From assembly GCA_951406725.2 (NCBI GenBank), contig OX597818.1:75020001-75084000 (forward strand): DNA of 64,000 bases. The letters run 5' to 3'. How positions within the stretch are numbered: the stretch's first letter is position 1; every line of letters begins with the position of its first letter. The position numbers and the translations under genes were made by a program. This DNA comes from Octopus vulgaris. Taxonomy: Eukaryota. Shown here piece by piece: positions 38,852 to 64,000 of the stretch. The notes below the pieces were generated by a model. That model was not told the DNA's origin and made no database searches. It worked only from the letters and a program-made list of their open reading frames with translations.

Positions 38852-39013
38852 TATACATACATGTATAGGTACACACACATATACACTTACATATATGCAT
38901 ATAAACATGTATACATGTATATATTTAGGTATATACATGTATACATATATATATACAAACACACAAAAGAAACACACAAAAGCCGTTCGATTCACTTCAA
39001 AATTTAAGTTTAA

Positions 39014-39064
39014 TTTGTCAAAATATTTTCGTCGCTATAAGACCGCGACCTGTTCACTGACAAA
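39014..39064 (-). ncRNA. Minimal type-I hammerhead ribozyme, G3-C8 core variant
   Basis: Minus strand: tttgtca-GTGAACA-g-gtcgc ggtcttata gcgac-GAAA-atat-TT-tgacaaa. Confidence 0.7.
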
Positions 39065-39471
39065 AATCCGTACTGCATCTGAGAAAGTAACAGTTAGTTC
39101 GTTATATATATGTACGTATGTATGTGTGTTTGTATGTATACACGCATGTATGCATGCATGTATGTATGTACGTACGTACGCCTGTGTGTATGTACGTATG
39201 TATGTATACATACATACATACATACATACACATACATACATACATACATACACACATACATAATACATACACACAGGCGTACGTACGTACATACATACAT
39301 GTGTATGTATGTATGTATGTATGTATACATACATACGTACATACACACAGGCGTACGTACGTACATACATACATGCATGCATGCATACATGCGTGTATAC
39401 ATACAAACACACATACACACGTACATATATATAACGAACTAACTGTTACTTTCTCAGATGCAGCACGGATT

Positions 39472-39522
39472 TTTGTCAGTGAACAGGTCGCGGTCTCATA
39501 GCGACGAAAATATTTTGACAAA
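39472..39522 (+). ncRNA. Minimal type-I hammerhead ribozyme, G3-C8 core variant
   Basis: tttgtca-GTGAACA-g-gtcgc ggtctcata gcgac-GAAA-atat-TT-tgacaaa; 7-bp stem I, 5-bp stem II, palindromic helix III AATATT. Confidence 0.7.
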
Positions 39523-39608
39523 TTAAACTTAAATGTTGAAGTGAATCGAACAGCTTTTGTGTGTCTCTTAAATGGCTTACAAACACCTTCCACGCTGCAA
39601 TTGCTATA

Positions 39609-39690
<82 letters not shown>

Positions 39691-39707
39691 TTTATATATA
39701 CATATAT

Positions 39708-39852
39708 ATACGACGTGCTTCTTTCAGTTTCCGTCTACCAGGTTTTTATCGACCCGAGGCTATAGTAGAAGAGACTTGCTCAGGCTGCCACACAGTGGGA
39801 ATGAACCCAAAACCATGTGGTTGGGAAGCAAGCCTCTTACCACGAGGCCACG
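39708..39852 (-). mobile_element. SINE family B, 5' part
   Basis: ctttcagtttccgtctacca..gaggctatagtagaaga..aaccatgtggttgggaagcaag. Confidence 0.85.
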
Positions 39853-43555: not shown

Positions 43556-44592
43556 TATATATTGTTGTATTTCGGGACGGTCATTTTTTTTTGCCAAATA
43601 TGCACACGCACTATATATTCGTTCTTCACTCGTTTATTAATGTTCTTTTTCTAAGTCATGTCCGGAAATCTTTCGTCACACAGCGACACTTTCTGTCTTT
43701 GTGTGTGCTCTTGCTCCGATTGTTCCATTCCGTTCTTCAATGATACATATCTTTATATACGCATGCGTTTGCGTCTGTGTTTGTGTGTGTGTATAGATGT
43801 ACGTGTGTACATGACTGTGTGTGTGTGTCATTGTCCTTAATAACGCTATGACGCTCTCCTGACACGACACTTAGACAAATCACCGAGGCTACTCACATAG
43901 CAATTGACAGACCGAGCCTCAACTTAAAACTCGAGTGGGATAATAACACCCACCACTACACCACACAACATGACGACTAAAGACAAAGAGAGAAAGAAAT
44001 ACAGCTACAAACAGTGTAATACACACGCAATAGACAAATATGCACACACCTATGATAGAGATAGATTTTTTAAAAAAATTAATCTATATAGTGGGCATAG
44101 ATACAAACAACATAGGAATCTAACCCATATACACGCACAAACACCCATGCAGTAATTTCACAGACGGCTGCAACAGTATCAACAACACGACCAACAAAGA
44201 CAACAGCAACAGCGGTAGCAACAATGGCAACAACAACTACTACGAAGGCAGCAACGTGGGCGAACAAACAGAGAAATACAGGAACGGTACCAAATTGGGT
44301 TCAAGCGCAGCAGCAACAGCAACAGGAGAGGAGATGAGGTTGAGGGGAGGGTCATACTGATAGTAAGAACAATCGCACACACACACACATACGAAAACGC
44401 ATGTGCGGAGCAGGAAAACACACAAAGACGGAAAGTGTCGCTGAAGAGGTCACAGACGTGTGACGAAAGATTTCCGGACAATGGGCGTGAGTTAGAATAA
44501 GAGCAGTAATAAAAGAACGAATACATAGTGTACGTGTTTATTTGGCAAAAGAAATAAAGAAAATATAACAATCCCGAAATACAGCAATATCT
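43556..44592. repeat. Inverted pair of diverged HHR-bearing repeats (43556-43860 / 44342-44592) around a ~480-bp spacer
   Basis: ttgttgtatttcggga..tgtccggaaatctttcgtcacac..ctttgtgtg mirrors cacacaaagac..gtgacgaaagatttccggaca..tcccgaaatacagcaa. Confidence 0.85.
44436..44480 (+). ncRNA. Minimal type-I hammerhead ribozyme, canonical core
   Basis: tgtcg-CTGAAGA-g-gtcaca gacg tgtgac-GAAA-gatt-TC-cggaca; helix III AGAUUU self-complementary with G-U pairs; UUC site. Confidence 0.82.
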
Positions 44593-62526: not shown

Positions 62527-64000
62527 CAGTTGCGGCCAAAATGTTCAGAACGGCATTGTTTTCGTCAGAAAATTAAGTATAAGTTTTTATCAAAGTTGTT
62601 TTATATTCTATAATTTTCATAGACAATAAATACGATATTATTTGTTATTGTCTGAGATTTTGGTGTAATTTTAGAGGACAATACAAAAGCTATGGATGAT
62701 TTAGTGATTTACTGCAAAAACCCATGGCGGCCAAAATGATCAGAACGGTTGCGTTTAGTCCGTGTTTTAGTATATTTAACCGGCGAACTCTAATGTTTTG
62801 AATTTGTTTACGTGACGGTTCGTTTACTAAACATTAGTAAGAATATCTGCAGTGTACTTTGTTAATATAATGCCACTTACTCCGTTACCAATTCGTCAGC
62901 AGATTATTAAGCTTCGAAAGAAGGATAATTTAAGTATTGGGTCTATTGCAACGATTGTTAACAAGTCAAAAAGTGTTGTTCACGGTATTCTTAAGGTCTA
63001 CGATGATTGTGGTTCGTGTGAAGCAAGAAAGTCTACAGGTAGGCCAAGAAAACGACCAAGAGATAAGATCGTGCTATGGTAAAATTGGTTAAAAAGGACA
63101 GATTTAAAACTGCTGCTGCTGCTGTTTCTCGGAAAATGAGCATTGTACTGAAGAAAACTTTATCTCGAAAAACTGTGTTTCGTCGTTTAGTTGAACATGG
63201 CCTACAAGCAAGGTCACCTGCAGTGAAGCCACTGATCAGCTCCAAGAATAAAAAGTGTCGTCTTACCTTTGCAACCGAACATGTGTTGTGGTCTCAAGAA
63301 AAATGGCAAATGGTGCATTTCAGGGATGAATTTAAGTTTATGTTATTTGGCTCAGATGGGAAAAGGTATGTTCGTCGAAAAGTAGGTGAAAAATTGTCGC
63401 CTAAATGCCTTAAGACTAGTGTTAAATTCGGTGGAGGAAGTGTCATGGTTTGGGGGATGATATCTGGAGATGGTGTGGGGCCCTTTGGTGAAATTACATG
63501 GAAAGGTAAATGCAGGAGTTTATAAACAACTTGTAAAAGATCATGCCTTGACTGTGCTAAGAAATACAACTAAGCGACCACCCATATTCATGCAGGACAA
63601 TGCCCCATGTCACAAGGCTGAGGTGATAATGAACTTTCTCAAGGCTGAAAAGGTTATTGTTATGGATTGGCCTGCTCAAAACCAAGATCTCAATCCTATT
63701 GAAAATGTGTGGAATATTCTAGGAGACCGTTCGAAAGCCAGAAATCCTAAAACAACTGAGCAATTATGGAATGCCCTTCAGGAAGAATGGAATAAGATCA
63801 CCCAGCAAGAAATTGAAATTTAATTTCCTCATGCAGTCGAAGATATCAAAGTGTGATTGAAGCTAAAGGGCTTCACACTAAATATTAAATAATTCCAGTA
63901 TCCTCTGTCCTTTTTGATTATTTTGTTATATTCAACCGTTCTGATCATTTTGGCCGCCATGGGTTTTGCAGTAAATCACTAAATCATCCATAAGTTTTGT
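62527..64000 (+). mobile_element. Tc1 (DD34E) transposon with long IR-DR terminal repeats; right TIR runs off the window
   Basis: TA|cagttgcggccaaaatgttcagaacgg, inner DR gcggccaaaatgatcagaacgg at ~62727, mirrored at ~63936-64000. Confidence 0.95.
62870..63888 (+). pseudogene. Tc1 transposase, three frameshifts
   Basis: TGRPRK, VHFRDEFKFMLFGSDG, KFGGGSVMVWG, FMQDNAPCH, DWPAQNQDLNPIENVW; frame breaks near 63055, 63480 and 63820. Confidence 0.93.

Follow-up and report, generated by a model that had tools for sequence, protein, structure and literature searches.

Can a hammerhead ribozyme in which the two partners of the 3-8 core pair have changed places be a natural and working RNA, and what kind of element would carry it? 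The question is raised by positions 39472-39522 of the window, as we call the whole stretch of 64,000 nucleotides of Octopus vulgaris DNA analysed here, which lies in a microsatellite-rich genome of 2.8 Gb. An earlier note had described there a 7-bp stem I, the core strand GTGAACA, an extra G, a 5-bp stem II, GAAA, the palindrome AATATT and a UUU cleavage triplet, and every one of these elements is found in the sequence. The motif, whose family is referred to as A and whose sister families as B, B2, C, D, E, F and F2, is laid out as follows.

39472-39522, + strand: type I minimal hammerhead motif, G3-C8 variant, family A, assigned from sequence and fold
39479-39485, + strand: core strand G3 U4 G5 A6 A7 C8 A9 (GTGAACA), with G3 at 39479 and C8 at 39484
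39486, + strand: extra G between A9 and G10.1, common to all sister families aligned
39487-39505, + strand: stem II (5 bp; arms 39487-39491 and 39501-39505) with a 9-nt loop II
39506-39515, + strand: G12 A13 A14 A15.1, helix III AATATT and U17 (GAAA 39506-39509, AATATT 39509-39514, U17 39515)

Stem I pairs 39472-39478 with 39516-39522 over 7 bp, and hammerhead numbering predicts the cut between 39515 and 39516. Compared with CUGANGA-GAAA-UH, the sequence departs at positions 3 and 8 and nowhere else apart from the extra nucleotide, so that the earlier claim of core deviations confined to 3 and 8 is correct if that nucleotide is counted besides. U4, G5, A6, A9, G12, A13, A14, the A15.1-U16.1 pair and H17 are all in place, here and in 30 of 30 copies picked by the element's protein; the literal C3 and G8 of CUGANGA are replaced by G3 and C8. 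The minimum free energy (MFE) fold of the motif consists of stems I and II (-13.8 kcal/mol, z-score -2.6, 3 of 200 shuffles as good), and these two arms of the three-way junction also covary between families. Helix III exists only as a 6-bp intermolecular palindrome, a duplex that by itself amounts to only -0.2 kcal/mol, and when two strands of the family A motif are folded without constraint the MFE structure differs from the hammerhead dimer. The ground state predicted for the motif has G3 paired with U17. Rfam returned no hammerhead match at E<=10 for the 171-nt region 39430-39600, as had been expected of CUGANGA-type models, and for the whole window only matches driven by simple repeats among the 150 listed of 395. 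Our own descriptor (a Watson-Crick 3-8 pair, stem II of at least 5 and stem I of at least 5) matches two sites in the 64-kb window; any match at all was obtained in 1 of 200 dinucleotide shuffles.

Judged by its coding sequence and copy structure, the motif is hosted by the pLTR of a Penelope-like element (PLE) of the EN+ type, which is young and autonomous. A 119-nt motif region gave 1977 first-look candidates genome-wide. The open reading frame (ORF) was located by a search with upstream DNA, the first 30 loci, taken with 1.5 kb upstream, being truncated and so without an ORF. The longest open frame of family A has 1025 aa and contains YVDD and YIGET motifs (read by eye) and, before the endonuclease (EN), the linker CQSNCAVC, which has the form CX3CxxC and falls within CX2-5CxxC; a single ORF with reverse transcriptase (RT) and C-terminal GIY-YIG endonuclease is the arrangement of EN+ PLEs. 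When the genome was searched with the C-terminal 219 aa, dozens of coding copies 98-99% identical appeared among the best 150 of 8589 candidates that were scored. The family A protein itself matched no Pfam family significantly and nothing significant in the PDB; in Pfam, its homologue P0098 matches GIY-YIG at E 1e-6 and its homologue P0006 RVT_1 at E 0.004, below the cut-off, and among the members of Atlas neighbours at 0.95-0.96 some have RVT_1 or GIY-YIG. In all 30 loci picked by the EN protein the motif lies about 1 kb 3' of the stop codon, on the sense strand, behind the RT-EN ORF, and the association with PLEs proposed in the earlier note is thereby confirmed. The next start codon (ATG, 39572) stands 56 nt past the predicted cut, an offset taken from locus L323, and locus L318 runs continuously from the 3' part of the motif through the ATG into the ORF. 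On the 3' side, copies stop at either of two preferred points separated by about 60 nt, in most cases within (TA)n; their 5' ends are variable, often with inverted arms. A family A tandem with both motifs intact was not seen among the loci examined.

These properties place the motif among known systems, for which papers are cited here and below by the portions available to us. Like the minimal type I hammerheads of metazoan PLEs (Cervera and de la Pena 2014, PMC4209133), it occupies the sense strand of the pLTR, has a short palindromic helix III, an extra nucleotide between 9 and 10.1, a G10.1-C11.1 pair and the U17 that is common in that group, and it occurs mostly in single truncated copies and close inverted pairs; it differs from them in having G3-C8 in place of C3-G8 and an extra G where the published consensus gives H. 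The element resembles EN+ PLEs with a CX2-5CxxC linker (Neptune, Nematis; PMC8557442) in its one ORF with RT followed by a C-terminal GIY-YIG-type EN, its DK(S)G motif, CX3CxxC linker and CCHH-type residues, its pLTRs, its tandem or inverted 5'-truncated copies, its optional tail and its (TA)n targets, and by the linker motif it appears to be of the Neptune/Nematis type. Unlike those elements, family A has a long microsatellite-like 3' UTR and an optional tail of about 60 nt rather than 30-40.

Is the exchange a property of the family or an accident of one copy? The earlier note had asked for conservation of G3 and C8 among the copies, and had named their loss, or that of GAAA, from the family consensus as grounds for giving up the reading; no such loss was found. 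A genome pattern search with a fixed 12-nt flank gave 2209 family A matches, of which 2063 are G3-C8. The other cores are G3.G8 (66, 3%), G3.U8 (25) and G3.A8 (9), and 46 matches have a letter other than G at position 3 (A 32, T 7, C 7); C3-G8 occurs in none of the 2209. Loci chosen by the EN protein, regardless of the motif, had G3-C8, AATATT and U17 in 30 cases of 30. Among 30 loci chosen by upstream DNA the motif was reached in 24, comprising 19 with G3-C8, 3 with G3.G8, 1 with U3.C8 and 1 with A3-U8. Loop II differs between subfamilies. In contigs from 4 of 24 listed public runs (organism labels A, B, C and D), no letter other than C reaches 1% at position 8 in any of the four, and no letter other than G does so at position 3 in three of them, run X3 having three G>A places (per-run tallies). 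G3-C8 dominates in the runs of three other organism labels, the variants within the motif fall at CpG sites, in loop II and in stem I (U-A to U.G), and the RNA-guess run alone shows, besides, a small number of A>G or T>C changes at roughly 1-5%.

Two groups of exceptional copies were observed. G3.G8, which has the core letters of the inactive C3G single mutant, outnumbers the other transversions at these two positions about ninefold (66 against 7, 7 and 9). Its copies (L063-L082) span several loop II types, 12 of them on C27, and are skewed towards smaller contigs (8 of 66 on C1-C10, compared with 36 of 80 other changes; P 1e-5); in the four public runs G3.G8 stays below 1%. The excess may reflect a transposing mismatch lineage or assembly error. 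Locus L062 is a family A copy with a different flank and the canonical C3-G8 core, and the inverted arms next to it have G3-C8; its position 3 forms the centre of an interrupted palindrome, and a strand switch could flip it.

The sister families provide the background against which the exchange can be read. The 3-8 pair is G-C in families A and C, C-G in B, D and E, and a wobble or mismatch in F and F2. Family C, older than A and related to it, combines G3-C8 with C7, a different loop II and the 4-nt palindrome AATT, its commonest helix III (11 of 24); when searched with 3, 7 and 8 left free (n=25), it had G3 in 21 of 25, C8 in 19 of 25, both in 16 and C3 with G8 in none. Its tail is 73% identical to that of A (E 9e-19). 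Families B, B2, D and E have the scaffold and tail in common and carry C3-G8, assignments that are founded on the first 100 listed of 1546 matches to a non-G3 scaffold pattern; the proteins of A and E are 55% identical. Family F is mostly U3.G8 (14 of 20 loci), and the six loci of F2 all have A8, with U3 in 3, C3 in 2 and A3 in 1. A U3-A8 family had been considered as well and was dropped when unbiased patterns gave mostly U3.G8 (F) and the small, mixed F2. Families F and F2 (L337-L366) are old, and one PLE clade thus covers C-G, U.G, U-A, C.A and G-C at 3-8. Families C and F were placed by tail DNA only, tblastn having found no ORF remnant near their loci. A search for an independent G3-C8 family on another scaffold yielded only A, C and background among the first 100 matches of 201, 297 and 245.

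Trees, rooted at the midpoint only, join A and C (100/99 for motif plus tail, 100/100 for the tail alone) apart from the C3-G8 and U3.G8 lineages; a row labelled B2 (L368) is the A-family motif from the same locus and not a misplaced B2. Published PLE hammerheads as a rule have C3-G8, and from this we infer a single derived swap at the base of A and C. Positions 3 and 8 are paired in 25 of 25 aligned rows (GC 15, CG 8, UG 2), rows that were hand-picked, are related and in many cases were obtained with patterns fixing 3 and 8; they show the pattern and constitute no test, and the counts are not independent because the swap is one event on one branch. The covariation that had been sought in the stems is present: between families, pair 10.4-11.4 of stem II changes on both sides in the 25-row alignment and pair 2.3-1.3 of stem I is U-A or C-G. 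In helix III, too, both sides change between families: pair 15.2-16.2 is A-U in A and C and G-C in D, E, B2 and F2. The extra G is invariant in 25 of 25 rows, most of them found with patterns containing it, and is also present in all 30 loci picked by protein. Along the A stem (about 0.35 changes per site) 11 core sites show no change, with a rough P of 0.02; for G3 and C8 alone, to have stayed unchanged has a probability of about 0.5 by chance. Family E, by its side, is young, with intact 1312-aa ORFs about 99% identical and tandem copies on C19. In about 2,969 matches its A9 is replaced, by C in 99 of the 100 listed (for instance L308:5218-5266, + strand), and the lineage can thus thrive with a damaged core.

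The base at the cleavage site differs between the families in a way that bears on the exchange. All 51 loci of A and 21 of the 24 loci of C have U17, and C17 occurs in neither family; C17 is the base in 27 of 28 loci of B and in 6 of 7 of D, and B2, E and F mostly have U17. Pairing between 3 and 17 has been proposed as a trap for G17 ribozymes, and G3-C8 is stated to be more active without C17 ("data not shown"; both PMC3884650). With only one swap event to go by, our hypothesis is that U17 preceded the exchange and made it possible, since a C at 17 would hold G3 in a Watson-Crick pair across the cleavage site.

On this evidence we think it rather probable that the motif is a hammerhead carried in the pLTR of an autonomous PLE family with G3-C8, and that it would self-cleave, at a predicted rate that is likely weak, after U17 in transcripts of intact elements. 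Positions 3 and 8 form a tertiary Watson-Crick pair; G12 serves as general base and the 2'-OH of nucleotide 8 as acid (PMC3884650, PMC6155905). G3-C8 would rebuild this pair with its geometry kept, and the rebuilt pair would hold the 2'-OH of nucleotide 8 against G12. Two motifs would then associate through the palindromic AATATT helix III into a dimer, probably aided by the element's own RT-EN protein, and the cut after U17 would separate the units of a tandem transcript, the new 5' end lying 56 nt upstream of the ATG. The engineered C3G/G8C exchange has been reported to rescue in part a PLE hammerhead that requires PLE protein (the PAc PLE, PMC11167929), and partial rescue of a Schistosoma ribozyme is cited both there and in PMC8495972; family A shares the base swap with these mutants and differs from them in that its swap is natural, present in thousands of copies and set in a U17 background. 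PLE minimal hammerheads are described as weakly active as dimers (PMC4209133, PMC6765202), an extra G after A9 is strongly harmful in the CChMVd hammerhead (reviewed in PMC3705267), and for PAc a search of RNA-seq reads turned up none ending at the cut (PMC11167929). Cleavage is probably helpful, and not essential, for transposition.

The swapped-core motif is a natural G3-C8 variant of a known ribozyme and is probably weakly active. In the portions of the literature available to us, natural 3-8 Watson-Crick pairs are C-G and U-A, and G-C appears only as a partly rescued laboratory mutant. Natural U3-A8 hammerheads (Perreault 2011, PMC3088659; the Schistosoma Cercyon PLE, PMC4209133) resemble the present case as natural covariation at 3-8; U3-A8 can be reached by two transitions, whereas the G3-C8 of family A needs two transversions, with a purine at 3 and a pyrimidine at 8. 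A full-text literature search provisionally found no natural G3-C8 hammerhead in print: the available portions of PMC3088659 and PMC7151607 give natural U3-A8 and other variants and no natural G3-C8, those of PMC13282606 do not mention ribozymes, and supplement 2 of PMC4209133 has only C3 or U3 cores in the places listed. Because it is fixed in a young family that exceeds 2,000 copies and has homologous canonical sisters, G-C lends natural phylogenetic support to the 3-8 pair and shows that PLE ribozymes are undercounted by standard descriptors. What PLE hammerheads do also becomes directly testable with the matched natural variants of this clade, which include an apparently core-broken and very successful family.

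A bolder proposition, which we hold tentatively and at somewhat short of an even chance, is that G3-C8 with U17 is a working alternative natural core, reachable by epistasis with the cleavage-site base, present in thousands of copies, recurring in the PLEs of other genomes and invisible to CUGANGA searches. If it is true, the octopus clade, with its C-G, U.G, U-A, C.A, G-C and A9C cores in families that transpose, would be a natural series on whether PLE ribozymes must cut.

Rather doubtful, and yet to be taken seriously, is the converse reading that the motif derives from a hammerhead and no longer cuts usefully, its fold being kept as an RT-EN binding or folding element or as pLTR promoter sequence, with G3-C8 structural or a chance product of relaxed catalytic selection. 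That A9C is fixed in the active family E, that U3.G8 and C3.A8 lineages exist and that G3.G8 copies are in surplus would all follow from it, as would the invariance of stem II letters outside the catalytic core; U4, G5, A6, G12-A15.1 and U16.1 are nevertheless the commonest letters in all lineages, in part through the choice of search patterns, and it is N7, loop II and the flanks that vary. Killing the ribozyme of PAc left insertion in vitro unaffected, so that cleavage was dispensable there (PMC11167929), and PLE minimal hammerheads cut poorly even as dimers (PMC4209133). Against these points, the transversions at 3 and 8 are complementary, helix III has remained palindromic despite a change in length, and the bias towards U17 fits an active-site constraint, which leaves the hammerhead of weak predicted activity as the reading we prefer.

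The earlier note had placed the motif in a non-autonomous, retrozyme-like family, and a related possibility is that a non-autonomous retrozyme or SINE-like family spreads via small circular RNAs, a reading to which we give very little credence. Most copies, that in the window included, are indeed short and without an ORF, and non-LTR retrozymes also have a type I hammerhead of PLE origin (bioRxiv 10.64898/2026.07.22.740005). However, copies extend 5' into a same-strand RT and GIY-YIG ORF, the short ones are 5' truncations with variable ends and inverted arms, and no head-to-tail monomer arrays were seen in 30 loci, the extra copies being inverted. As retrozymes are non-coding tandem repeats in that preprint and family A is coding and dispersed, membership among the non-LTR retrozymes was rejected, and the label of the earlier note does not stand against a 1025-aa ORF with dozens of near-identical coding copies. 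A chance hammerhead look-alike in AT-rich repeat DNA, for which the silence of Rfam and the fall of the motif's fold z-score to -1.0 with 12 nt of flank on each side could be cited, is refuted to the point of negligible probability by the scarcity of descriptor matches in shuffled sequence and, above all, by column-by-column alignment with homologous canonical C3-G8 sister hammerheads at the same place in the element.

The preferred reading, that of a pLTR hammerhead of an autonomous PLE, concerns the family; the copy in the window has a history of its own, as the following features show.

39327-39603, + strand: right arm, the 3' end (pLTR) of a 5'-truncated Penelope-like copy; left boundary approximate
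38967-39206, - strand: left arm, a truncated and inverted copy of this pLTR; right boundary approximate
39014-39064, - strand: second G3-C8 hammerhead motif, in the inverted arm (96% over 140 nt)
39572-39603, + strand: start codon and first ten codons (MAYKHLPRCN) of the RT-EN ORF; the insertion ends at 39603
39605-39710, no strand: (TA)n microsatellite, the typical insertion target of family A, adjoining the insertion
44434-44482, + strand: canonical C3-G8 hammerhead of the homologous sister family B, a natural control for the swap

A family A element is present here as a fold-back insertion with a truncated 5' end. Its inverted twin motif at 39014-39064 (- strand), which is the second of the two descriptor sites, is absent from the earlier note. 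A + strand transcript spanning both arms is predicted to fold into a hairpin of -447 kcal/mol that buries the 39472 motif, and because the inverted twin would sequester it, the genomic copy at 39472-39522 is probably silent. The motif near 44436, a member of family B, has C3 at 44441, G8 at 44446 and the same extra G as the 39472 motif, so that the likeness in topology to a canonical hammerhead, extra G after A9 included, which had been pointed out before, is real; its stem I is bulged, and the strict descriptor scan therefore passes over it.

Several further observations concern the insertions and their surroundings. The arms of one inverted insertion often differ in loop II type (L065, L068, L070, L073, L081), which suggests template switching between element RNAs during insertion. 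On C1 the arms of many inverted pairs join 8-35 nt upstream of the stem I flank, close to a short palindrome; the short stretch just upstream of the ribozyme motif is a fold-back hot spot. At L045:2398-3200 (+) a mariner-like transposase frame (by eye) interrupts a family A copy, and at L142:740-1879 (-) a 380-aa hydrophobic multi-pass frame, chemoreceptor-like by eye, adjoins one. At 43630-43718 (-) and 43861-43944 (+) the window has a second fragment of family B, which lacks the core and is oriented oppositely to the 44436 copy, and between them a weak remnant of the EN C-terminus (E 0.019). Further along the window, at 63067-63823 (+), two overlapping frames resemble, by eye, a broken Tc1/mariner transposase.
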